In this document: positions 27,126-58,962 of the stretch, in pieces | Position numbering within the stretch: the stretch's first letter is position 1 | Layout: every line of letters starts with the position of its first letter | Assembly (NCBI GenBank): GCA_001786835.1 | Contig: MFTO01000013.1 | Coordinates: forward strand, 1,002-65,001 | From: Candidatus Nomurabacteria bacterium RIFCSPHIGHO2_01_FULL_40_20 | GTDB taxonomy: Bacteria > Patescibacteriota > Minisyncoccia > Phycocordibacterales > UBA9973 | Direction: 5' to 3' | Length of the DNA: 64,000 bases | Notes under the pieces: model-generated | Database searches by the model: none | The model's input: the letters and a program-made list of their open reading frames with translations, nothing else | What the model was told of the DNA's origin: nothing | Made by a program: the position numbers and the translations under genes

Positions 27126-27818
27126 TTAACTCCTTCTCTTCCACCCCTCAATCTTTTTATGATTTCCAGAGAGTAGCACTTTAGGAACTTTATAACTTTT
27201 AGACTTCTTGCCCCGCCCTGGCGGGGTGTATTTTAAAATTTCTGGCCGAGTATAAACTTCGCTTGTTGACACTCGTTCTTCTTCTAGAGACTCAAATTTA
27301 CCAAGCACGCCTTTGATTTGACGAGAAATACAGTCTATCAGAACCATCGCGGGAAGTTCACCACCTGTGAGAACATAATCCCCTATTGAAATTTCTTCTG
27401 CTTTGAAAATTTTTACCACTCGAGTATCAATGCCTTCATACCTACCGGAAATTAAAATAATATCCGTATATTTTTTGACTGCACTCTTTGCATACACGGT
27501 TGTAAATTTTTTGCCTGATGGAGAGAAAAGAATAATTTTTGTTTTTTTATTCTTTCCCTTCGATGAACTCAAGGCTTTACTGACTGCGTGAATTATGGGC
27601 TCGGCACGCATTACCATACCGGGACCTCCACCATATGGTCGGTCGTCCACAGGTCGGTAATTATTCTGATTTTTATTCTTGAGCACTTTTACAAAATCGC
27701 GTGGATTATAAAATTTAAAATCTATCAGTTTGTTCTTTTTCGCCCGCGCCAAAATAGACTCGTTAAAATACGAACTAAACATGTTGGGGAATATAGAGAT
27801 AATGTGAAATTTAATCAT
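27126..27818 (-). CDS. trmD: tRNA (guanine37-N1)-methyltransferase TrmD
   Basis: FHIISIFPNMF, DDRPYGGGPGMVM and YVLTGGELPAMVLID are the SPOUT/TrmD knot motifs. Confidence 0.9.
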   Translation of the reverse strand: MIKFHIISIFPNMFSSYFNESILARAKKNKLIDFKFYNPRDFVKVLKNKNQNNYRPVDDRPYGGGPGMVMRAEPIIHAVSKALSSSKGKNKKTKIILFSPSGKKFTTVYAKSAVKKYTDIILISGRYEGIDTRVVKIFKAEEISIGDYVLTGGELPAMVLIDCISRQIKGVLGKFESLEEERVSTSEVYTRPEILKYTPPGRGKKSKSYKVPKVLLSGNHKKIEGWKRRS

Positions 27819-27937
27819 AAAAAATTGCTGTGCCCGTCCGTAGCTTTAGCGCAGGAGGGTAATAACGTGGAAACGCATAAAAATACTATAATCTAAAACT
27901 GTAAAAACTGCCACTCAACAATAATCAACAATAAATA

Positions 27938-27971
27938 TGACACAAATTCTGCATAGGCAGAAAGTATGTCA
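27938..27971. repeat. Palindrome IR(a): TGACACAAATTCTGC-ATAG-GCAGAAAGTATGTCA (15-4-15, imperfect), directly 3' of the paralog-1 stop and about 40 nt upstream of the trmD -10
   Basis: Read directly; it is related to IR(b) and IR(c). Confidence 0.8.
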
Positions 27972-27975
27972 TTAT

Positions 27976-28455
27976 CTATATTTTGTATGGCTTTGCTAAT
28001 TTAAATGTTTTGATGCAATCTTTCAACCTTATCTCATCCAAATATTTCAAAAAATCTTTCGGCAAGGGTGATGGTCCGACCCAAACACTTTTTTGAATCA
28101 TAATGTAACTAAATTTTTTCAAATGAAAACGAAACCACTCTCTTTCAGCTTTTTGAACTACTGGTATATCAAACATAACTATGAGATTTTTAGACAAATC
28201 AACCGTTGTTGGTCTTGAAAAAGATTTCAATGAATCTTCTTTTCTCTTGAGATACTTTTTACCGTTAGCGGTTATTATAAAGCCATTTAATTCTTTCTTA
28301 ATTAAATCATTTCGAGCCAAGCGGTCAGCACTAGAGCGCAGACTTCTCCTTGAAAAACTATTAAAACGAGGAATGCCGAAAAGGTTAACGGGTACACCTT
28401 TATACTTTATTTCTGTATTCCAAAGTTCTTTTAAAATTTCTTCCACCATAGACAT
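27976..28455 (-). CDS. Winged-helix plus PaaX-middle-domain/Cas2-like protein, paralog 1. The track start is 28488 (GTG inside a palindrome), but the likely start is ATG at about 28455 (MSMVEEIL...).
   Basis: The C-terminal half (LIVMFDIPVVQKAEREWFRFHLKKFSYIMIQKSVWVGPSPLP) resembles E. coli PaaX (WLLLL...VKKQLIWQGFGALAPSLMASP) and the Cas2 beta-alpha-beta core (YDV...QNSVFEC). The N-terminal half is wHTH-like. Its paralog is at 52547..53035. Confidence 0.6.
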   Translation of the reverse strand: MSMVEEILKELWNTEIKYKGVPVNLFGIPRFNSFSRRSLRSSADRLARNDLIKKELNGFIITANGKKYLKRKEDSLKSFSRPTTVDLSKNLIVMFDIPVVQKAEREWFRFHLKKFSYIMIQKSVWVGPSPLPKDFLKYLDEIRLKDCIKTFKLAKPYKI

Positions 28456-28482
28456 GGAAGAAGTATACTCTAAATAAGTTTC

Positions 28483-28516
28483 TGACACAAATTCTGCATA
28501 GGCAGAACTTGTGTCA
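28483..28516. repeat. Palindrome IR(b): TGACACAAATTCTGC-ATAG-GCAGAACTTGTGTCA, overlapping the -35 region of the paralog-1 promoter (-10 TATACT at 28463-28468, then a leaderless ATG)
   Basis: Read directly. Confidence 0.8.
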
Positions 28517-29350
28517 TTAAAGATATTTCTTTTTATCCCTTTTAGTCATATATTTTTGACGATCAAACCTAGGTATATTCATCTCGTCTAGGGTTTTGCG
28601 CATTTTTTGGATATCTTCTAAATTTATACCGAATTCACCACTACCGCTTTTACTATACCGATTTTCAACACCAGCATATCCTTCTCTGTCTTTGTAATAA
28701 TCAGACTTAATAGTTGCTGCTGACTCAACTTTGATTATTCTTTTTGCTGTATTTTCTTTTGCTCCCATTGCTTGCATTGCAATCATCCTTTGAAAGGCTT
28801 TATTGGTGGCAACCTTGGTTTTCATTGTTTGGATAATAGACCTCACTCCACTTTGTATTGACTTGCCAAAGAGAACAACAATCATTCCAAGTTCGGTAAT
28901 TGTTAATGTATCGTATATATTACTAAAATCACCGCCTATATTATTTGAAATAGCTATGGAAAGATTAACAATCCCATCAGAAACTGGACCGTAATTTAAG
29001 AAGTCGGCTGCTAGTCCAGCGGCAATGAGACCCTTAATAATCGCCCCTTTCACATATTTGCTAGGGCGAGTAAGGTTTTCTTTGATATGCTTTTTGAGAT
29101 TTTCTTTTTCAACGTCATATTCGGTCTTGCCACCTTTTTTTAATTCGCCGGTATCTGGATTGGTATCTTTTAAATACGGACGTTTTTGCATTTCACTTTT
29201 AATATCAAATATTTCCGTAGCAAGTTCAGAATTCTTTTCCGTTATTTCAATACCGTAAAGTACAGAATTGGCATCGTCAAAATTGAGTGTTTTCTCTAAC
29301 CGCATCCTGTCCTCTTTTGAACCCATAGGTATAAAATTTTCGTTTGTCAT
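28517..29350 (-). CDS. Hypothetical protein with a central hydrophobic/Gly-rich segment (gene B of the palindrome-flanked island)
   Basis: A 277-aa ORF with no recognised domain and a hydrophobic stretch IIKGLIAAGLAADFLNYGPVSDGIVNLSIAISNNIGG.... Confidence 0.4.
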   Translation of the reverse strand: MTNENFIPMGSKEDRMRLEKTLNFDDANSVLYGIEITEKNSELATEIFDIKSEMQKRPYLKDTNPDTGELKKGGKTEYDVEKENLKKHIKENLTRPSKYVKGAIIKGLIAAGLAADFLNYGPVSDGIVNLSIAISNNIGGDFSNIYDTLTITELGMIVVLFGKSIQSGVRSIIQTMKTKVATNKAFQRMIAMQAMGAKENTAKRIIKVESAATIKSDYYKDREGYAGVENRYSKSGSGEFGINLEDIQKMRKTLDEMNIPRFDRQKYMTKRDKKKYL

Positions 29351-29370
29351 AATTTTTACTTTATTATTTT

Positions 29371-29535
29371 ATAAAGAAGCTTTCTCCGGTATCGACTTTA
29401 CTATATCTAAAAATTCACCGGAAAGACCTTTGACTATGTCCAAATACTGAAGATTTTCTTCTTCAGTAGCGCTACCGTCTTTCACTTTTTTCGCTAAAAC
29501 TTCAAGTTCTTCTATTGTAATTGGTTCCATATTTT
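29371..29535 (-). CDS. Possible 54-aa acidic small protein upstream of gene B (found by hand)
   Basis: It translates to MEPITIEELEVLAKKVKDGSATEEENLQYLDIVKGLSGEFLDIVKSIPEKASL*. A TTGACT-17-TACACT promoter containing a G10 tract lies upstream. Confidence 0.25.
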
Positions 29536-29567
29536 TATAAATTAAAACTTGTAATACCTAAAGTGTA

Positions 29568-29577
29568 CCCCCCCCCC
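29568..29577. promoter_or_regulatory. Homopolymeric C10 (G10 on the coding strand) tract inside the 17-nt spacer of a TTGACT/TACACT promoter driving the small-ORF/gene-B operon
   Basis: The minus strand reads TTGACT-taattgcGGGGGGGGGG-TACACT. Confidence 0.6.
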
Positions 29578-29598
29578 GCAATTAAGTCAAGGGGAGAA

Positions 29599-29642
29599 AT
29601 CAATGACACAAATTCTGCCTAGGCAGAATATGTGTCATTGAT
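29599..29642. repeat. Palindrome IR(c): ATCAATGACACAAATTCTGC-CTAG-GCAGAATATGTGTCATTGAT (20-4-20), upstream of the small-ORF/gene-B promoter
   Basis: Read directly. Confidence 0.8.
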
Positions 29643-29648
29643 TTTAAA

Positions 29649-29676
29649 AACAAAAAACTCGGTTTCCCGAGTCCTT
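29649..29676 (-). terminator. Rho-independent terminator of the rpsP-KH operon
   Basis: The minus strand reads ACUCGGGAAACCGAGU followed by U6 (plus strand AAAAAACTCGGTTTCCCGAGT). Confidence 0.7.
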
Positions 29677-29714: not shown

Positions 29715-30047
29715 TTATATCCCTTTCAAATCTTCCATCGCTTGGTCTACAGTCTTTAGGCTAGAAGCTCCTCCTTCGGACCTTTCAGGCCTGCTACCAC
29801 CTTCCGGCTCGTTTATTTTCAGATTTACGCGAGCGTTATTTTTCATCCCGATGATACGTAGAAGTGTGCGGATAGCTTTGGCGGTGTTGCCCATTCGCCC
29901 GATAATCTTGCCCATATCGGCAGGGTTCACGGTGAGCGTTATGAGCACCCCCATCTCATCGACAGTACGATCGATTTTGACATCATTCGGATTATCAACG
30001 AGAGCTTTTACTACATATTCTAGAAATACCTTATCTTGGTCTTGCAT
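29715..30047 (-). CDS. KH-domain RNA-binding protein (YlqC/UPF0109 family) of the rpsP operon
   Basis: VKALVDNPNDVKIDRTVDEMGVLITLTVNPADMGKIIGRMGNTAKAIRTLL is the KH GXXG motif, and the gene follows rpsP. Confidence 0.8.
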   Translation of the reverse strand: MQDQDKVFLEYVVKALVDNPNDVKIDRTVDEMGVLITLTVNPADMGKIIGRMGNTAKAIRTLLRIIGMKNNARVNLKINEPEGGSRPERSEGGASSLKTVDQAMEDLKGI

Positions 30048-30168: not shown

Positions 30169-30477
30169 TTACTTCTTTGCCTTTAGTTCCTTTCGCTTTA
30201 TTGTAGGCTTCTTTTTTGGGAGTACATTTATCTTCTTACCTTCTATCGCTTTTTGGTGCACCAAGAAGTTGTGCATCGTATCGGACGGTTTTGCTCCTTT
30301 GGCAATCCAGTATTTCATTCTATCGGTCTTAAAGTCCGTGAGGCCGGCTTTTGGATTGTAAGTACCCAATATTTCCAAAAATTTCCCACTTTTTGTAGAG
30401 TTCTTTGAATCAGTCAAAACCGCCCGAAAAGCCGGGTCGTTTTTTCTGCCAATCCTCTGTAATCTTATTTTAAGCAT
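30169..30477 (-). CDS. rpsP: 30S ribosomal protein S16
   Basis: MLKIRLQRIGRKNDPAFRAVLTDSK...YNPKAG. Confidence 0.9.
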   Translation of the reverse strand: MLKIRLQRIGRKNDPAFRAVLTDSKNSTKSGKFLEILGTYNPKAGLTDFKTDRMKYWIAKGAKPSDTMHNFLVHQKAIEGKKINVLPKKKPTIKRKELKAKK

Positions 30478-30524: not shown

Positions 30525-31451
30525 CTACTCGGATTGCATGCCGTAGCCAGAGGACTGTTCTCCATACCCATTTACTTTCTTAAATCCTTTTACCGTCTTC
30601 TGCCCTTCTACAGAATATTGTCCGGGAACATCATAAAAACCTTTTACGCTTTTTTGTCCTTCGACTTCATTGAAACCCTTTACATCATACTGTCCGTCCA
30701 CAGCATTGAAACCTTTTACACTATATTGACCAGAAACTTCATTAAATCCTTGAACATTATAAAATCCGGGAACTTCATTGAATCCCTTTATTTCATTAAA
30801 TCCGGTTACAACATAGAACCCAGTTACTTCATTGAAGCCGTTTACACTATAAAATCCGGGCACTTCAGTAAAGCCAACCACGGGATAACTGCCAATAACA
30901 TTGTAAAATCCGGTTACTTCGTTTTGTCCTATAACAGTATAAAATCCGGGAACAGTAATATCTCCATCCACAGGGTAACTGCCAGGAACAGTGATACTTC
31001 CGGGTACAGTGATATTTCCATTTACATTGTAATGACCAACAACCGTCTTACTACCCGGAACTATATAACTAGCATTCACGCTATATCCTCCAGGAATCGT
31101 ATAGCTTCCCGGAATAATATAAAAACCGTTTATCGCAATCATACCTGGTACTGTAATATTTCCGGGAATAATATAATGCGCATTTACAGCATAACTGCCG
31201 GGAACAAGGTACTGGCCGTTGATACTGTAAAAACCTGGAACAGGATAAAAGGCATAAATGTAATAAAATCCAGGTATTCCATAATCCGCATCAACTCCAT
31301 AAAATCCTGGCGTGCCATAACCATAACAGTCGCAGGAGTAATCATAAAAACACCCGCACGCTTCCGCTTTCGGCGCAAAGAGAGCAAAAGACACAAAGAC
31401 CATAAGGCCTATAACTGCCAATATCATTATATTTGACTTTTTTAATTTCAC
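30525..31451 (-). CDS. Secreted Cys/Tyr/Gly-rich protein with about 45 tandem hexapeptide repeats (consensus x-x-x-V-x-G)
   Basis: A signal peptide, then ACGCFYDYSCDCYGYG, then a run of HYIIPG NITVPG ... FNEVTG FYVVTG FNEIKG FNEVPG ... QKTVKG. The underlying DNA has 18-bp periodicity. Confidence 0.6.
   Translation of the reverse strand: MKLKKSNIMILAVIGLMVFVSFALFAPKAEACGCFYDYSCDCYGYGTPGFYGVDADYGIPGFYYIYAFYPVPGFYSINGQYLVPGSYAVNAHYIIPGNITVPGMIAINGFYIIPGSYTIPGGYSVNASYIVPGSKTVVGHYNVNGNITVPGSITVPGSYPVDGDITVPGFYTVIGQNEVTGFYNVIGSYPVVGFTEVPGFYSVNGFNEVTGFYVVTGFNEIKGFNEVPGFYNVQGFNEVSGQYSVKGFNAVDGQYDVKGFNEVEGQKSVKGFYDVPGQYSVEGQKTVKGFKKVNGYGEQSSGYGMQSE
30560..31300. repeat. Coding tandem repeat with 18-bp periodicity (hexapeptide units) inside the 30525..31451 CDS
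   Basis: The protein shows about 45 consecutive xxxVxG units. Confidence 0.7.
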
Positions 31452-36029: not shown

Positions 36030-36093
36030 TTAAAATCTATTCTCTTATTCGCACGAATTAGAGAAGGTGGTCAGCTCTAGAGTTAGCTCTAGA
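36030..36093. repeat. Dispersed intergenic repeat, copy 1. It contains a 12-2-12 palindrome TTCTCTTATTCG-CA-CGAATTAGAGAA and a tandem AGCTCTAGAGTT hairpin, located upstream (on the minus strand) of the Nudix gene's -10.
   Basis: Read directly. Related copies are at 36646-36672, 36974-37030 and 39707-39740, and the AGCTCTAGAG unit alone at 58927-58952. Confidence 0.8.
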
Positions 36094-36094
36094 G

Positions 36095-36619
36095 TTATAA
36101 TTTCTCTTTTTTCATATCCACTTGCCAAATACCCATGAGAATTGAACTCATGACAAAAACCTCAGTAACTATGCCGGGATATGAAACCATAACAATACTG
36201 TATACAAACCACAAACCGGAGCCAACAAGCGAGAAAATTCTAATCAAAAAAGGATTGTCTCTCCATCTAGCGTAAGTACCCACAACAATCCCAAAAAATG
36301 GAAGAAGGCTAATCAACCCCTGCCAGGACAAAGAGAGAAGAACTCCTGCAAAAAGTATAAAAACAACAACCCACCACGGCGAGGATGCCCAACGTTTCTT
36401 ATCTTTCTTTTCAAATACAAAATTGCGCACTCCAGCAACAATGTTCATGGTAGCTCCAGTAAAAGCACCGAGCATTGCAAAGTGCACGGTAAAGAAAATT
36501 GTCGAGAACATCTGCTTTTTGAGTATTTGCGTTCTCGTTTTCCCTTGAAAGGAGAGAATAATGAAAACAAGGCCGATAAATCCTAAGCCTTGAGTAATCC
36601 AAAATGTCATGTCCCCCAT
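36095..36619 (-). CDS. Hypothetical 5-6 TM membrane protein (YgjV/PnuC-like topology; the family call is weak)
   Basis: Hydrophobic helices throughout. It sits in a cluster of nucleotide-pyrophosphatase genes. Confidence 0.4.
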   Translation of the reverse strand: MGDMTFWITQGLGFIGLVFIILSFQGKTRTQILKKQMFSTIFFTVHFAMLGAFTGATMNIVAGVRNFVFEKKDKKRWASSPWWVVVFILFAGVLLSLSWQGLISLLPFFGIVVGTYARWRDNPFLIRIFSLVGSGLWFVYSIVMVSYPGIVTEVFVMSSILMGIWQVDMKKEKL

Positions 36620-36690
36620 CGTTTTAGTATAGCAAAATACTTAAGATTAAAAACCATTCTCTTATTCGTGCGAATTAGAGAAGGTTAGGG

Positions 36691-36957
36691 TCAAAGAGAG
36701 TCAATGATCTCTTTGACGAGCGAATTGGGTTTAGAAAATAAACTATAAAATTTTACCAAGCTTACTTGGTCCGCTTCTATAATCTCCGCATTAGATAAAA
36801 TCAAGAGGTGTTTTGAGGTGGATTTAAAAGAAAGCTTTATGGCATCCGCAACCTCTCCCACTGACTGCTCTTTGTTTTTCTTCAAAAATTTTAAAATAGC
36901 TAGCCGGCGTCGATTGGCAAACGCTTTGAATATTTTTTCTAAATCTTTTTCTTGCAT
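36691..36957 (-). CDS. ArsR/SmtB-family winged-helix transcriptional regulator
   Basis: FKAFANRRRLAILKFLKK..EQSVGEVADAIKLSFKSTSKHLLILSNAEII is the ArsR HTH signature. A 12-2-12 palindrome lies upstream. Confidence 0.7.
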   Translation of the reverse strand: MQEKDLEKIFKAFANRRRLAILKFLKKNKEQSVGEVADAIKLSFKSTSKHLLILSNAEIIEADQVSLVKFYSLFSKPNSLVKEIIDSL

Positions 36958-36973
36958 AAATCTTATTTTACCA

Positions 36974-37030
36974 CCATTCTCTTATTCGTGCGAATTAGAG
37001 AAGGTGGTCAGCTCTAGAGTTAGCTCTAGA
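36974..37030. repeat. Dispersed intergenic repeat, copy 3, upstream of the ArsR-family gene: TTCTCTTATTCG-TG-CGAATTAGAGAA plus AGCTCTAGAGTTAGCTCTAGAGCT
   Basis: Read directly. Confidence 0.8.
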
Positions 37031-37568
37031 GCTGGTACTCCCAGCCGGGTTGCCAGGATTTGGTTTTGCGCCAGTCTTCGGCTAGGGCTTGTTCCCAAGT
37101 TTTACCTTTAAGTAGCACGTCTAGGGATAATTGCGGAGCTTTGTGAGCAACTATAGCCACATGTTTGCCGTCATAATTTTCTTTTAGAAATTTCAAAAAG
37201 TCTGCCATTCTTGCCTTCACATCTTCATAACTTTCCCCGCCCGGAAATTTATTGTAAATACATTCCTCTTCTTGCATCGGCTCCACCACCAAAGACGACG
37301 CGCCATTTAATTTTCCATAGTCGCATTCACGCAGTCTCTTGTCAGAGATAATTTCATATTTGTCTCCAAACGCAAGATGCGCCGAATCCACCGCCCGTTT
37401 CAAATCCGAGCAAAAAACCACATCAAAATTTTTATCAGCTACAAGATCGCCGAGTTCTTTTGATTGTTTTATTCCTAACTCCGACAACTCCCCCGGCAAT
37501 CCGCCAGTAGAAATATGCTCTTCATTGTCCGTCGTCGTCCCGTGTACAAAATATGTGATTTGAATCAT
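37026..37568 (-). CDS. Histidine-phosphatase superfamily protein (phosphoglycerate-mutase-like) with VHG replacing the canonical RHG
   Basis: IQITYFVHGTTTDN, ...FCSDLKRAVDSA... and ...IVAHKAPQ. Confidence 0.65.
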   Translation of the reverse strand: MIQITYFVHGTTTDNEEHISTGGLPGELSELGIKQSKELGDLVADKNFDVVFCSDLKRAVDSAHLAFGDKYEIISDKRLRECDYGKLNGASSLVVEPMQEEECIYNKFPGGESYEDVKARMADFLKFLKENYDGKHVAIVAHKAPQLSLDVLLKGKTWEQALAEDWRKTKSWQPGWEYQL

Positions 37569-52441: not shown

Positions 52442-52462
52442 TTATTTATATATCTCCGCCAT
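52442..52462. repeat. 21-bp direct repeat TTATTTATATATCTCCGCCAT, copy 1. The minus strand reads ATGGCGGAGATATATAAATAA, which equals the last 6 codons plus stop of the helicase gene.
   Basis: Identical 21-mers at 52442-52462 and 53159-53179 flank the roughly 700-bp paralog-2 cassette. Confidence 0.85.
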
Positions 52463-52469
52463 CTTATGA

Positions 52470-52505
52470 TTGTTAATTTTCCTGCGATAGCAGGAAGTTT
52501 AACAA
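52470..52505. repeat. Palindrome TTGTTAATTTTCCTGC-GATA-GCAGGAAGTTTAACAA, 3' of paralog 2
   Basis: Read directly. It shares the inner core TTCnTGC-N4-GCAnGAA with IR(a), IR(b) and IR(c), but its outer arms differ. Confidence 0.75.
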
Positions 52506-52546
52506 TTATTTTACCCACAACAAAAAATTAACTCTAGTCTATCTGT

Positions 52547-53035
52547 CTATCTTTTTCTTGTTTCAAATCCTTTTGCCAGTTTAAAGGTCTGGATATTGTC
52601 TTTGATCTTTATACGCTTGATGTAATCTAAAAAATCCCGCGGCAGTGGCGAGGGTCCAACCCAGACGCTCTTTTGAATCATCACAAAGCCAAACTTTTTC
52701 AAATGCCAGCGAAACCATTCCCTCTCCGCCTTCTTCTCTTCCGGAATATCATACATCAATAATAAATTCTTCGGCGCCTCTTTATCAAACTTATTTGAAA
52801 ATTGTTTTAAAGAATCTATTTTTCTTTCAATATATTTTCTTCCTTTGGGGGTAATCCGTAAAAAATCATTTTGCTCGTCAACAAATCCATTTTTATACAT
52901 ATAAAATAAAGTCCCTCGCAGAGACCCCTTGGAATAGTCCTTGAATTTTGGAATACCGAAAAGGTTAGTTGAAACCCCTTTGTATCTCAGTGTGGTTTTA
53001 CTTAATTCTTCTAAGATGTTATAAATCAACCCCAT
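52547..53035 (-). CDS. Winged-helix plus PaaX-middle-domain/Cas2-like protein, paralog 2
   Basis: LLMYDIPEEKKAEREWFRWHLKKFGFVMIQKSVWVGPSPLPRDF is about 70% identical to paralog 1 across the C-terminal half. A TATAAT sits 6 nt before the ATG, with a palindrome immediately upstream. Confidence 0.6.
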   Translation of the reverse strand: MGLIYNILEELSKTTLRYKGVSTNLFGIPKFKDYSKGSLRGTLFYMYKNGFVDEQNDFLRITPKGRKYIERKIDSLKQFSNKFDKEAPKNLLLMYDIPEEKKAEREWFRWHLKKFGFVMIQKSVWVGPSPLPRDFLDYIKRIKIKDNIQTFKLAKGFETRKR

Positions 53036-53050
53036 ATAAATATTATATCA

Positions 53051-53090
53051 AAATGTTAAATTCTCTGCTATCGCTAAGTATTTAACATTT
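53051..53090. repeat. Palindrome AAATGTTAAATTCTCTGC-TATC-GCTAAGTATTTAACATTT, directly upstream of the paralog-2 -10 TATAAT (53042-53047) and its leaderless ATG
   Basis: Read directly; the outer 11-bp arms are perfect. Confidence 0.75.
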
Positions 53091-53158: not shown

Positions 53159-53179
53159 TTATTTATATATCTCCGCCAT
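53159..53179. repeat. 21-bp direct repeat TTATTTATATATCTCCGCCAT, copy 2 (the authentic 3' end of the helicase-nuclease ORF)
   Basis: See copy 1. Confidence 0.85.
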
Positions 53180-56119
53180 TTTGCAGTATTCGCAGATAGC
53201 GTTTGCTTTGCCGTAAGAGTTAAAGTGACACTCGCGGGTGACCCACTCGCCCGAGTTTAGAAACCTAGAATAGTCCTCGATATCTCGCACTAATAAATCT
53301 ATCTCTTCTTCGGTCATGGGTGCGCGGTAAAATCTTTCCCTTTCATCTTTAGCTTCGAGAAATTCCAAAATTCCTTCCTCCACTTTTACCCGCCACTTGG
53401 GACTAGTCTTCAAAAGATAAGCATACATCGCGAGTTGGCGCATCAAGTTTGAGAGCCGACCCTCGTCGTCTATTTTTTCAATATCGTTTTTTTTCTTCGG
53501 GCTTCCAGTTTTAAAATCGGTCACCCGCACTGTTTTGGCGGAAATATTTTCTACCAGATCTAACCGTCCATAAATTGATAGGTGCGGAAACCTGTCGTCT
53601 TTAACCGATACGCTTTGTTCATTTTTATAATCCCGCGCCAAATTCGGAAAGCTGTTTTTTACCCACTTGGCAACTATCTTCTCTGCCTCCTTGTCGCCCA
53701 AGACCAGTTCCAATATTTCACCCTCTTTTAATCCTCCTCTCTTTTGTAATATTTTATCTATAGCTTTGTGCACTATATCGCCCAGTTCCAAACTACGCGA
53801 TTTAGGCTCGGGCAATTGCAAAAAATTTCGGAAATACCATTTCCACGGGCATTCGAAAAAATTATTGAGGAGCGAGACGGAAACTTTCCTATCTTCATAA
53901 TCTTTTTTGACTATCTCTACTAATTCTTTGAGGGTGGTACTCTCTTTTTCTTTCTTACCCTTGTGAGAACTTCCAGCATAGGATTTCGGATCAAGGGCTA
54001 GAATTTTTTTCTCGGTCTCGCTCGCAGACTGTTTTTCAAAATGGTCGTCCAAATCCGCGACAATCTGGGAGAGCTCTTGGTTTGCGCCAGTATATGAAGA
54101 CAGAGCATAAGAAATTGTGCAAAATCTTTTTGCCCGAGTAATAGCCACATAGAGTTGGCGTTTCAGCACTTCAACGTCTTTCTTTTCAACTTTTTCTTTT
54201 ATACTCTCGGGAAGTGTAAACCCGCCCCGCCTGCCCCCCGAAAATGACCGCTCATCCATGTGCGCAATCCAGACATAATCAAACTCAAGCCCTTTGGAGC
54301 CGTGAAGAGTGAGCACTTTGATACCTTCGTCTTTACCAAAGACAGCAAGCGGAATGCTCTCCCCGTATTCTTCCAGTCTTTCAATAAAAGAAATAAAATC
54401 TTTGAGGTTAAGCTTGGAATCCTTTTCTATTTGTGCGAGCGCGAGGTGGAGAATTGTGCGCACCACTTCTATCCGCACCACTAGATCTTCGTGACTCTTG
54501 GCATCATGCAGTAGTAAATCACTACCAACTTTTTGAATAAAAGAATAGAGACTCATGGAATTTCTCGCGGTGAGCCAAGAGTGGAGTTTCTCAATCCATT
54601 TATTGGTAGCGCTACTTTCGCTAAATAAATCATTTTTCTCGGCTACAACATCAAGTAAGGAAAAATCGCGCATGTTCTGCTCTCGTAAAAATTTATGGGC
54701 GGATAACGGCGGAATATCCGAAACCCCATCAAACAAAGATTCGCCCAGCGCCACGCCGTCTTCGGGATGCGCTAATATTTTTAAAACTCGCAGAAGTGAT
54801 AATGCTTCCGGGGAGTCAAAAAAGTCTTGAGCCTCGCCACTAGACACTGGAAGTCCCATGTCCTTGAGGATTGTGATTACGCTACGAACTTGGCGATTTT
54901 TTGGCACGAGAATTGCTATCTCGTTTGGGTCTATGGTTTTACTTTGCTCACCACCTTCTGTCTTATTTTTTTTCAAAAGCTCTTTGATTTCAAGTCCGCA
55001 GGCAATAATCTCATCGCGTGGGTAGCTCGCTTCCACTAAACGAAGAGGATGACTTCCTTCGCGATTGCTCTTTAATTTCTCGGCAGTCAAAGAACTCTGC
55101 AAAAGAGAGTGAGAGGCATCTAAGATTTTGCCCGTGGAGCGATAATTCTCAACGAGGGTAATTAATTTTGCTTTGCCGAAAGTGTTTTTAAAATTCTCAA
55201 AATACTCTAATGACGCTCCGCCAAAGCCATAAATAAGCTGGCGATCATCCCCCACCACAAAGATGTTTGGCTTTTCCACCTTACTCCAAACCAAAGACAG
55301 AAATTCATTTTGCACTCCGGAAGAATCCTGATGCTCATCTATGAGCACATATAAAAATTCTTCTTTGATTTCAACTCTCGCTGTTTCAGACTCCTCCATT
55401 ATCTTTACTAGATTCTCCAGCACGTCATCATAGTCCAGCACCCCGCTCTCAATTTTTTCTTTTTCATAAAATTCGTAAAACTGCACCGCTTCCCGCGAGC
55501 GAGCGAGCCCCTCTATTTTTGTCTCCACTTCTTTTTTAAGCTCCCCCTTCCGTGCTCCGCGCGAAGAAATACTGTCCGGATTATTTTCAAGCTCGCTTAT
55601 TTCTTTTTCAATTTCTTTGGCAAAATTCTCCGGTGTTATACGCTCGCGTTTCAAAAGTGAAATTAAATTTTTCAAATCACTGAAATATCTCGCCGTATCG
55701 GCGCGAGGACGAAGGTATTCCCAAGGGTGACCGTGTAAGATTCTGTCGCAAAGTAGAATAGAGTCTTTTTCATCCAAGAGTTTCGGCTCCCTCTCCATCC
55801 CAAGCACGCGGTAATATTTCTCTATCATCTCCATGCCGAAACTATGAAAAGTGGCGATTTTCACCTTGCTTGCCTCCACCCCGATATATTTACGCAAGCG
55901 CTCGCGCATAGCACGGACGGCGCTATTGGTAAAAGTAAGGCAAAGTATGTCATCAGCTTTGGTGTCTGTCTCCTTTAAAATATTCCCAATCCTCAGAGCC
56001 AGTACTTGGGTCTTGCCTGTGCCCGGCCCGGCGACCACCATCACGGGCCCTTCAACAGTATCCACCGCCTCCTTTTGGGCTTGGTTTAATTTTTTATATT
56101 CTTCGTCAAATTTTTGCAT
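53159..56119 (-). CDS. UvrD/REP-family helicase fused to a C-terminal PD-(D/E)xK nuclease domain with a Cys cluster (AddB/Cas4-like)
   Basis: The N-terminus has AQKEAVDTVEGPVMVVAGPGTGKTQVL (helicase motif I). The C-terminus has CPWKWYFRNFL...DFKTGSPKK...CHFNSYGKANAICEYCK. The last 6 codons (MAEIYK*) are duplicated at 52442-52462. Confidence 0.85.
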   Translation of the reverse strand: MQKFDEEYKKLNQAQKEAVDTVEGPVMVVAGPGTGKTQVLALRIGNILKETDTKADDILCLTFTNSAVRAMRERLRKYIGVEASKVKIATFHSFGMEMIEKYYRVLGMEREPKLLDEKDSILLCDRILHGHPWEYLRPRADTARYFSDLKNLISLLKRERITPENFAKEIEKEISELENNPDSISSRGARKGELKKEVETKIEGLARSREAVQFYEFYEKEKIESGVLDYDDVLENLVKIMEESETARVEIKEEFLYVLIDEHQDSSGVQNEFLSLVWSKVEKPNIFVVGDDRQLIYGFGGASLEYFENFKNTFGKAKLITLVENYRSTGKILDASHSLLQSSLTAEKLKSNREGSHPLRLVEASYPRDEIIACGLEIKELLKKNKTEGGEQSKTIDPNEIAILVPKNRQVRSVITILKDMGLPVSSGEAQDFFDSPEALSLLRVLKILAHPEDGVALGESLFDGVSDIPPLSAHKFLREQNMRDFSLLDVVAEKNDLFSESSATNKWIEKLHSWLTARNSMSLYSFIQKVGSDLLLHDAKSHEDLVVRIEVVRTILHLALAQIEKDSKLNLKDFISFIERLEEYGESIPLAVFGKDEGIKVLTLHGSKGLEFDYVWIAHMDERSFSGGRRGGFTLPESIKEKVEKKDVEVLKRQLYVAITRAKRFCTISYALSSYTGANQELSQIVADLDDHFEKQSASETEKKILALDPKSYAGSSHKGKKEKESTTLKELVEIVKKDYEDRKVSVSLLNNFFECPWKWYFRNFLQLPEPKSRSLELGDIVHKAIDKILQKRGGLKEGEILELVLGDKEAEKIVAKWVKNSFPNLARDYKNEQSVSVKDDRFPHLSIYGRLDLVENISAKTVRVTDFKTGSPKKKNDIEKIDDEGRLSNLMRQLAMYAYLLKTSPKWRVKVEEGILEFLEAKDERERFYRAPMTEEEIDLLVRDIEDYSRFLNSGEWVTRECHFNSYGKANAICEYCKMAEIYK

Positions 56120-58926: not shown

Positions 58927-58962
58927 CGAGCTCTAGAGTTAGCTCTAGAGCTAAATACGTAA

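Follow-up and report, generated by a model that had tools for sequence, protein, structure and literature searches.

What is a small protein with a Cas2-like domain doing among three near-identical palindromes, in the interval between rpsP and trmD of a tiny bacterium from groundwater, a member of the candidate phyla radiation (CPR)? The question is raised by a stretch of DNA of 64 kb, referred to here as the window, from the genome of Candidatus Nomurabacteria bacterium RIFCSPHIGHO2_01_FULL_40_20 (contig MFTO01000013.1), in which all genes of the rpsP-trmD region lie on the minus strand. Read along that strand, the order is rpsP, a gene for a KH protein, the KH terminator, inverted repeat IR(c), a promoter, the open reading frames (ORFs) ORF53 and ORF277, IR(b), paralog 1, IR(a) and trmD (Table 1); paralog 1 encodes the protein in question, which combines a winged helix-turn-helix (wHTH) domain with the Cas2-like domain, and a second gene of the same kind, paralog 2, is located elsewhere in the window. 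On balance, we favour the view that the palindromes are copies of a ~38-bp element that is the predicted cognate site of the adjacent wHTH and Cas2-like protein, and that element and protein together make up a low-copy pair resembling the repetitive extragenic palindromic (REP) sequences and their RAYT proteins.

The three palindromes belong to a single repeat family, with 3, 1 and 1 arm mismatches in IR(a), IR(b) and IR(c), respectively. The half-site TGACACAAATTCTGC is matched six times within these three palindromes, and no other place in the 64 kb matches it at two or fewer mismatches; at 0-3 mismatches, nine matches are found against 2.27 expected, six of them in the IR sites and three, with three mismatches each, at unrelated positions, and none of 100 shuffles reaches nine. 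The core ACA-N3-TCTGC-N4-GCAGA-N3-TGT occurs three times in the window, at IR(a), IR(b) and IR(c) only, where 0.14 occurrences are expected; a window-wide scan yields 13 long palindromes. A preceding sequence-only reading of this DNA had described three near-identical palindromes that bracket paralog 1, ORF277 and a small ORF, and the half-site matches, core matches and arm mismatches confirm that description. The best-preserved copy is IR(c), with 24-nt arms, one mismatch and 96% complementarity; the most decayed is IR(a), with its three mismatches in one arm and a terminator-like position. Paralog 2, which is 52% identical to paralog 1, had been credited with the same architecture and a different palindrome, and the scan agrees: the palindrome type of paralog 2 has only two matches in the window (0.09 expected), both of which flank this gene. 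An inner core shared by the sites of the two paralogues had also been proposed; the shared core stands but is wider than in the original version, comprising TCTGC-N4-GCAGA together with ACA/TGT.

The protein encoded by paralog 1 occurs in exactly the same form, annotated as hypothetical, in Candidatus Nomurabacteria bacterium RIFCSPLOWO2_01_FULL_41_21. The PF20803 (PaaX_M) model, with a cut-off of 24, matches paralog 1 with an E-value of 4e-10 (40 bits) and paralog 2 with an E-value of 3e-15 (56.4 bits), and the Pfam wHTH models match both paralogues weakly. The PaaX equivalog model TIGR02277 is not reached (28.7 against a cut-off of 264.55), and there is no C-terminal PaaX_C effector domain, the protein ending at residue 159. 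The scores for the Cas2 models straddle the cut-offs: with TIGR01573 (cut-off 24.5), paralog 1 scores 23.8, which is below, and paralog 2 scores 31.4, which is above, and with Pfam Cas2 paralog 1 is exactly at the cut-off (23.8) and paralog 2 scores 28.2. In an AlphaFold2 model, residues 3-61 adopt an H-beta-beta-H-H-wing arrangement with the recognition helix at 36-48 and the wing at 52-61, and the best Foldseek matches in the PDB are E. coli PaaX (8a39, 129 columns aligned) and Rv0674, followed by VapD and Cas2; a sequence comparison of the N-terminal domain with solved structures gives 1sd4 as the best match (E 0.0025). Conservation within the protein is highest in the Cas2-like domain, where D96, K102, R105, R109, H111, K113, K114, Q121 and S123 are invariant, and in an alignment made with the family profile, D96 and the QKSVW strand correspond to the 'MFDMP ... 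QFSVY' motifs of Cas2. The family includes at least 1702 members, variously named 'Cas2', 'CRISPR-associated endonuclease Cas2' or 'PaaX' in the databases, and some genomes carry 2-3 or more paralogues. Judging by these domain assignments, we call the product of paralog 1 a mini-PaaX, that is, a predicted combination of DNA-binding and dimerisation modules that lacks the effector domain. The 'Cas2' annotation of these proteins is misleading. No cas1 was found among the neighbouring genes (trmD, ORF277, ORF53 and KH) and no array-like repeats in the 64-kb window, and no paa genes were recognised among the identified neighbours. An HUH/Y1 (IS200-like) transposase domain is absent, the wHTH and PaaX_M/Cas2-like domains being the only ones detected in the protein. 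As for a phage or defence origin, PHROGs gave nothing meaningful for the locus, and PADLOC matched only Cas2 models, on the C-terminal domain. The mini-PaaX family is absent from the 2.9 million viral contigs of IMG/VR, and searches of the full-text literature found no description of the family or of the palindromic element in CPR.

To see whether the association between gene and palindromes extends beyond this genome is to ask how the palindromes are placed around homologous genes. A scan of GTDB species representatives yielded 269 confirmed homologues, of which 80 loci were kept and analyzed together with the two window genes. A palindrome is located upstream in 58 and downstream in 59 of these 82 genes. 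Two distances from the centre of the upstream palindrome to the ATG prevail, 44-49 nt (40 genes) and 34-38 nt (14 genes), and in 54 homologous promoters a conserved TATAAT-like -10 box, which is TG-extended in the group with the shorter distance, ends 6-8 nt before the ATG, with no Shine-Dalgarno sequence. Given the lack of a Shine-Dalgarno sequence and the proximity of the -10 box to the ATG, these mRNAs are predicted to be leaderless, with the palindrome covering the -35/spacer region. The same is the case in the window, where IR(b) lies upstream of the -10 box TATACT, as originally described, the spacing between this box and the ATG implying that the paralog 1 mRNA is likewise leaderless. 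The autorepressor-operator geometry claimed in the sequence-only reading is thus borne out in silico by fixed palindrome-ATG distances, a conserved -10 box and the missing Shine-Dalgarno sequence, and mini-PaaX is likely to repress its own gene. The downstream copy is less constrained, its centre being found 8-97 nt past the stop codon. Because the next gene is convergent at 37 of 57 downstream copies (65%), this copy is not generally a promoter operator, and the idea that it serves as the operator of the next gene was rejected as a general rule; its position is that where a bidirectional terminator would be expected. Of the 75 family-type palindromes in the 723 kb of sequence that surround family genes, 71 are within 130 nt of the ends of the family gene; distant copies number four in these 723 kb of relatives, about 1 per 175 kb. 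At three loci (L019, L021 and L033), the downstream palindrome carries the arm type of another paralogue (in L021, TGACACA upstream and CTATACA downstream), which hints at cross-regulation between paralogues.

The structure of the site speaks for a protein-DNA partnership. In an alignment of 117 sites on their centres, two blocks are conserved, ACA (positions -13 to -11) and TCTGC (-7 to -3). Positions -17 to -14 vary from locus to locus, but symmetry is kept there in 92-99% of the sites (31-46% expected), whereas positions -10 to -8 are symmetric in just 54-66% (45% expected). Three central pairs would be left free by a dimer that reads two blocks per half-site; a stem selected for pairing would not leave them so. 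The highest-information links between protein and DNA connect positions -17 to -12 with residues R37, R40, S41, D44 and R45, and the i, i+3, i+4, i+7, i+8 spacing of these residues places them on one face of the predicted helix 36-48. When the five residues are taken as a signature, the 6-nt arm is shared in 57-80% of the pairs of loci with the same signature compared to 1-9% of the pairs with different signatures, and when the pairs are binned by their identity outside the helix, the association persists in each bin. The resulting correspondence pairs arm TGACACA with R37/R40 in the helix, TGCTACA with K37, TACTACA with K37 and D41, CT(A/C)TACA with D/E37 and Y40, TGGTACA with G37 and N41, GGCAACA with K37 and Q40, TACTTA with N37/S40/G41, and TGTTAA(A), the type of paralog 2, with G/S37 ... 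Y45. An independent test that started from the sites gave a concordant result: 22 of 22 typical family genes beside metagenomic TGACACA sites carry R37/R40/D44/R45. As a negative control, viral contigs contained 39 chance matches to the core, none with symmetric arms, and true copies of the element are absent there. The sequence-only reading had proposed that protein and site have co-diverged and that the recognition helix might covary with the outer arms across homologues; in silico, both are supported, the outer arm bases covarying with residues 37/40/41/44/45. Taken with the placement of the sites, this covariation makes it very probable that the ~38-bp palindrome is bound by the adjacent mini-PaaX protein. 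The invariant centre of the DNA site parallels the near-invariant Cas2-like domain, and we accordingly propose a Cas2-like dimer that would sit on the dyad, with the winged helices on the arms.

The palindromes are not confined to the neighbourhood of the family genes. A metagenome scan by DNA pattern alone identified 71 perfect TGACACA-type palindromes in 64 contigs, of which 27 are next to a family gene, 29 are clearly elsewhere and 15, with contig ends nearby, cannot be assigned, so that 29 of the 56 decidable sites are not beside a family gene. Copies at many unrelated loci without the gene had been named in the sequence-only reading as a finding that would refute its interpretation and speak for generic REP-like elements; in part this is the case, as these 29 of 71 sites show, but it does not overturn the reading of the palindrome as a binding site. 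One class of the non-adjacent copies is intergenic, a few nucleotides from stop codons, and in some of these the terminal TGA of the element provides the stop codon for two convergent genes; the distant copy in L020 (9741-9776) lies between convergent folA and a kinase-like gene and has A-run/T-run flanks. Further copies are located within coding sequences, 19 of them in seven unrelated genes (TGACACA type; host genes assigned by Pfam), namely those for arginyl-tRNA synthetase (ArgRS), ComEC, phosphoglycerate kinase, MiaA, a reverse transcriptase of the diversity-generating retroelement (DGR) type, TsaE and a DNA alkylation repair enzyme. All are read in one frame, as D-T-[NF]-S-A-x-A-E-x-V-S (for example, DTNSAMAEFVS), and comparison with close orthologues shows the element in sub-clades only, as 4-11 extra residues in variable loops; the copy in ArgRS of L012 is partly decayed. 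The solved structures of phosphoglycerate kinase do not reveal a clean length insertion, the insertion being clear only against close orthologues. These in-frame copies are known from relatives, not from the window itself. At the dispersed copies, the symmetry of the flanks drops to background ~3 nt beyond TGACACA, and the element thus has defined ends. An identical 34-nt palindrome cannot arise independently seven times, which means that the element was copied and pasted. The palindromes thus probably belong to a family of elements that are copied and pasted but stay low in number, and go beyond the role of a private operator.

Two enzymes that modify tRNA position 37, MiaA (L127, L135, L138, L089 and L137) and TsaE (L098), carry the TGACACA-type element in frame, a third, TrmD, has it just upstream in the window, and ArgRS also carries it; this link is post hoc and may be due to chance in small, translation-rich genomes. 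The DGR-type reverse transcriptase (RVT_1; L083, L097 and L128), encoded next to bAvd (L113/L125), contains the palindrome in frame in its coding sequence. A TGACACA/TGCTACA palindrome is also found repeatedly 3-28 nt from the stop or start of the gene for a Cys-rich protein of ~570 aa (CxxC-rich, with no Pfam match; L008 3161-4900, L096, L100, L103, L116 7306-9051 and L140), and in L096 two tandem genes of this kind are separated by the palindrome alone.

The gene order around paralog 1 indicates which parts of the locus are resident. Orthologues of paralog 1 with 63-73% identity are located between rpsP-KH and trmD in five species (L001, L002, L003, L005 and L013), in each case with two flanking palindromes and without rimM in the KH-trmD interval, and the small genes on either side of the regulator differ between species. 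The previous suggestion that an island occupies the rimM slot is not supported by this conservation, which makes the regulator a conserved resident and leaves IR(c) alone as lineage-specific; the accompanying observation that rimM is absent between KH and trmD was correct and extends to all relatives examined. Ten mid-size ORFs of the window were scanned against Pfam, and none is RimM. Paralog 2 is similarly stable, its orthologues in four species adjoining, on the 3' side, the orthologue of a gene for a 986-aa UvrD/PD-(D/E)XK (AddA-like) protein. The 24-nt direct repeat that encloses the entire palindrome-paralog 2-palindrome block, with one copy 3 nt from the downstream palindrome, resembles a long target duplication; such a flanking repeat is present in one of 45 units tested.

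The variable component of the paralog 1 locus is the ORF53-ORF277 cassette. ORF277 has no match in Pfam, NCBIfam, PHROG or PADLOC and is a near-orphan, with a single homologue (52% identity) in 5.8 billion proteins. The pair ORF53-ORF277 is conserved in L145, without palindromes, and L002 contains a decayed version of it, likewise between KH and the regulator; the upstream side of the L002 cassette has no palindrome, and the place orthologous to that of IR(c) is without a copy. These comparisons suggest that the cassette is a variable insert of greater age and that IR(c) was added as a further copy in this lineage. ORF277 was considered as a clue to the function of the regulator and dropped, being an orphan with its only homologue on a contig without palindromes, and integron-like capture of the cassette by palindromes was dropped in view of the L002 cassette that lacks a palindrome on its upstream side. 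In each of three species, the spacer of the cassette promoter includes a simple repeat, namely G10 in the window, (GA)10 in L002 (4195-4230) and G6 in L145 (30-60); this is the classic phase-variable layout, in which slippage alters the length of the -35/-10 spacer.

Combining these lines of evidence, we propose the following scheme, each functional step of which we infer. The mini-PaaX protein would bind as a dimer, with the Cas2-like domain, invariant across paralogues, placed on the invariant centre TCTGC-N4-GCAGA and with ACA and the four variable bases further out (+/-11 to 17) read by the two winged-helix domains. Once bound at IR(b), which covers the -35/spacer of the leaderless promoter, the protein would repress its own gene. 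IR(a), which follows the stop codon, probably serves to terminate or insulate the transcript, and a loop to IR(b) may be involved. With an arm sequence of its own, each paralogue would be spared cross-talk with other modules. Occasionally, the element would be copied elsewhere, IR(c) being one putative copy of this kind.

Several other explanations of the palindromes have to be considered. Were mini-PaaX an ordinary transcription factor with a small regulon, the operators would be of local origin, the remaining copies would be regulon sites or roadblocks, and nothing would be mobile. The fixed operator geometry, the covariation of helix and arms and the low copy number fit this explanation, as does an ArsR-family regulator in the same window that is likewise bracketed by two identical palindromes, but point mutation is an implausible source for an identical 34-nt palindrome in seven unrelated coding sequences, in one frame and as loop residues limited to sub-clades; moreover, the element has sharply defined ends, and 65% of the downstream copies are found between convergent genes, not at promoters. 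We regard such a purely regulatory system as unlikely. At the other extreme, mini-PaaX might itself nick or mobilise the palindromes through the conserved Cas2-type Asp, the flanking copies being the 'home' copies of a domesticated, vertically inherited system. Cognate palindromes on both sides of the gene, a separate type for each paralogue, a vertically inherited position and dispersed copies are all features of RAYTs (PMC3337134), D96, in the most conserved domain of the protein, aligns with the Asp of the Cas2 'MFDMP' strand, and one palindrome-gene-palindrome block in the window is flanked by the 24-nt direct repeat. Nevertheless, this strictly RAYT-like activity seems doubtful: PaaX-type Cas2-like domains have no known nuclease or transposase activity and are dimerisation modules in PaaX (PMC9493321), REPs reach far higher copy numbers, the dispersed copies have no target-site duplication, only one of 45 loci has a flanking direct repeat, and the absence of the family from the viral contigs gives no sign of horizontal spread.

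That the palindromes are just intrinsic, bidirectional terminators or RNA hairpins, incidentally associated with the gene, is suggested by their stable folding, by the downstream copies that come right after stop codons, mostly between convergent genes, and by the A/T-run flanks of many copies such as the one in L020. Termination, however, does not depend on a conserved sequence, whereas this element keeps ACA and TCTGC in dozens of species and shows hardly any pairing at positions -10 to -8; the arm bases track the helix of the neighbouring protein, the upstream copy is fixed relative to the -10 box and the ATG and not to the preceding gene, KH already has a canonical terminator immediately before IR(c), and in-frame copies in essential genes cannot terminate efficiently, all of which renders this explanation very improbable. 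Least plausible of all appears to be a mobile island, consisting of the 1.7-kb segment or of each palindrome-gene-palindrome unit, that was inserted between KH and trmD and replaced rimM. Terminal palindromes flank the unit, ORF277 is a near-orphan, the genes next to the regulator vary between species, and the direct repeat surrounds the paralog 2 unit; against this, the orthologues of both paralogues keep their places, in the KH-trmD interval of five species and after the AddA-like gene in four, the cassette is found without palindromes in L145 and with only the palindromes of the regulator in L002, 44 of 45 units lack a flanking direct repeat, and rimM is missing from the interval in all relatives examined, so that nothing was displaced recently.

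The interpretation that we prefer, an element copied at low frequency and recognised by the adjacent mini-PaaX, meets difficulties of its own. Confidence in the structural model is moderate (pLDDT 70.5). About 30% of the homologues lack a palindrome by the criteria used here, and the mixed arms at L019, L021 and L033 are not predicted by a simple picture of a private operator. The palindromes fold as stable RNA hairpins (-20 to -30 kcal/mol; z-scores -3.4 to -8.4), many of them with A-run/T-run flanks, and part of the selection on them could be for termination; in a simple terminator scan, only the inner stem of IR(a) passes; the stem of the element is, however, A+T-rich and conserved in sequence, and a permissive Rfam search returned just sub-threshold miRNA-hairpin artefacts, on IR(c). 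With respect to mobility, the window holds no copy away from the two regulator loci, the dispersed copies in the relatives are few, and the copies in coding sequences were sought for a single arm type, TGACACA. Among 39 dispersed copies, none has a direct repeat of 3-6 nt and one has a repeat of 2 nt, and neither a transposase nor a copying mechanism was found.

Comparison with characterized systems helps to define what is distinctive here. Phenylacetyl-CoA-responsive PaaX of E. coli and Pseudomonas (PDB 8a39 and 3l09) shares with mini-PaaX the succession of an N-terminal winged helix and a Cas2-like dimerisation domain. It represses its own promoter by steric hindrance, through occlusion of RNA polymerase, at a long palindrome, TGATTC-N27-GAATCA (PMC9493321), and widely spaced half-sites in a long palindrome and, as predicted, repression of the own promoter are shared by mini-PaaX. 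The differences are substantial: PaaX is a protein of ~305 aa with a C-terminal effector domain, whereas mini-PaaX, at 159 aa, has none, is not encoded near paa genes and has a site with a conserved centre in addition to the outer arms, several paralogues per genome with private arms, a second copy past the stop codon and dispersed copies that extend into coding sequences. In RAYT systems, the gene is flanked by its own repeats, of a type specific to each gene, and is vertically inherited, with extra copies of the repeat elsewhere (PMC3337134), and the likeness of REP/REPIN-RAYT pairs to a single-copy gene at a fixed locus between its own short, paralogue-specific palindromes is evident. Mini-PaaX, in contrast, is not an HUH/Y1 transposase, and its element is present in a handful of copies (3 + 2 in 64 kb) compared to tens to hundreds of REPs per genome; the element also occurs within coding sequences, its upstream copy has a fixed promoter geometry, and a mobilising activity of the protein is not inferable. 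The Rickettsia palindromic elements insert in frame into unrelated housekeeping genes (PMC10969869). These elements, and intragenic miniature inverted-repeat transposable elements, resemble the in-frame copies described here in that a palindrome encoding a conserved peptide is tolerated in surface loops of unrelated housekeeping proteins; the Rickettsia elements differ in size (~100-150 bp as against ~38 bp and ~11-13 residues) and in having no known cognate protein, whereas the mini-PaaX element has a matching family of DNA-binding proteins. With Cas2 and VapD, the protein shares a ferredoxin-like C-terminal fold in which the beta-1 Asp and the Q-x-S-V-aromatic strand are conserved; unlike in these systems, no cas1, CRISPR array or antitoxin gene is nearby and the domain is fused to a DNA-binding domain. 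BlaI and MecI are dimeric winged-helix autorepressors that recognise TACA/TGTA dyads. The match of the N-terminal domain to 1sd4 points in their direction, and the ACA/TGT of the element is reminiscent of these dyads, but mini-PaaX has another dimerisation domain, no sensor-protease partner and a much longer site.

The genomes of CPR bacteria are tiny, and very few regulators can be recognised in them. The mini-PaaX family is abundant in them, with at least 1702 matches and 2-3 or more paralogues per genome, yet is routinely mislabelled 'Cas2'; the data presented here suggest a concrete, testable role for it, dimeric binding to a defined 38-bp palindrome. For organisms that have not been cultured, the recognition code, which relates residues 37/40/41/44/45 to four outer bases, could allow targets to be predicted, and it could also guide the construction of orthogonal repressor-operator pairs. 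Judging by the in-frame copies, short palindromic elements are still mobile in these reduced genomes and reshape essential proteins, a phenomenon formerly best known from Rickettsia. It is conceivable, albeit improbable, that the wHTH and Cas2-like proteins of Paceibacteria are dedicated partners that mobilise, maintain or tame palindromic mobile elements of a new class, inherited vertically and present in few copies, a functional REPIN-RAYT analogue with a Cas2-fold protein in place of the HUH transposase, a helix-to-arm code and in-frame writing into essential genes. If true, this would be the first role for a Cas2-type domain in handling ~35-bp DNA units outside CRISPR, and a protein that drives or polices the movement of the element would link the Cas2 fold to the handling of spacer-sized DNA.

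The features on which the argument draws are listed in Table 1.

Table 1. Coordinates, in the 64-kb window, of the genes, promoters and repeats at the two mini-PaaX loci
Feature	Positions	Strand	Remarks
rpsP	30169-30477	minus	conserved upstream neighbour
KH protein, KhpA type	29715-30047	minus	conserved upstream neighbour
KH intrinsic terminator	29647-29672	minus	ACTCGG-GAAA-CCGAGT + T-run; canonical; separate from IR(c); read from sequence
IR(c)	29597-29644		between KH terminator and ORF53 promoter, 7 nt upstream of ORF53 -35
ORF53-ORF277 promoter	29562-29590 (G-run 29569-29578)	minus	TTGACT, 17-nt spacer with G10 run, TACACT
ORF53	29369-29530	minus	first gene of two-gene variable cassette
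ORF277	28517-29350	minus	277 aa; hydrophobic centre; TAA stop abuts IR(b)
IR(b)	28483-28518		over -35/spacer of paralog 1 promoter; centre -44 from ATG
-10 box TATACT	28462-28467	minus	6 nt before paralog 1 ATG; IR(b) 15 nt upstream of -10
Paralog 1	27976-28455	minus	159 aa; wHTH + Cas2-like (PaaX_M)
IR(a)	27937-27973		2 nt past paralog 1 stop; 23 nt upstream of predicted trmD -35
trmD	27126-27818	minus	Pfam tRNA_m1G_MT, E 1.6e-38; synteny in 5 species
Paralog 2	52547-53035	minus	162 aa; same architecture, different recognition helix (KGSLRGTLFYM)
Paralog 2 upstream palindrome	53054-53087		TGTTAAA type; centre -35; abuts TG-extended -10 TATAAT (53042-53047)
Paralog 2 downstream palindrome	52469-52506		
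24-nt direct repeat	52442-52465 and 53159-53182		23/24 identical; last codons and stop of AddA-like gene

Other palindromes and repeats were noticed in the window. The ArsR-family regulator mentioned above (88 aa; 36691-36957, minus strand; Pfam HTH_5, E 1.6e-7) is bracketed by two identical imperfect palindromes, CATTCTCTTATTCGTGCGAATTAGAGAAGG, of which one lies at the promoter of the regulator itself and the other precedes the next gene, which encodes a YgjV-like protein (36095-36619); the copies are at 36655-36684 and 36975-37004, and this second regulator thus shows the same design of being bracketed by its own site. A third palindrome family, CAGCTCTAGAGTTAGCTCTAGAGCTG, has three copies (36073-36094, 37009-37034 and 58929-58950) located just past the stop codons of minus-strand genes, those for the YgjV-like protein, a His-phosphatase and a 715-aa ORF, and is of the terminator-position type. 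The trmD leader (~66 nt) contains a G+C-rich segment, ACCCTCCTGCGCTAAAGCTACGGACGGGCAC (27830-27870, minus strand), amid A+T-rich intergenic DNA, with no match in Rfam. Directly upstream of rpsP, a 308-aa protein (30525-31451, minus strand) with a signal-like N-terminus consists almost entirely of short repeats of the V-P-G-F-Y-x-V-x-G type.

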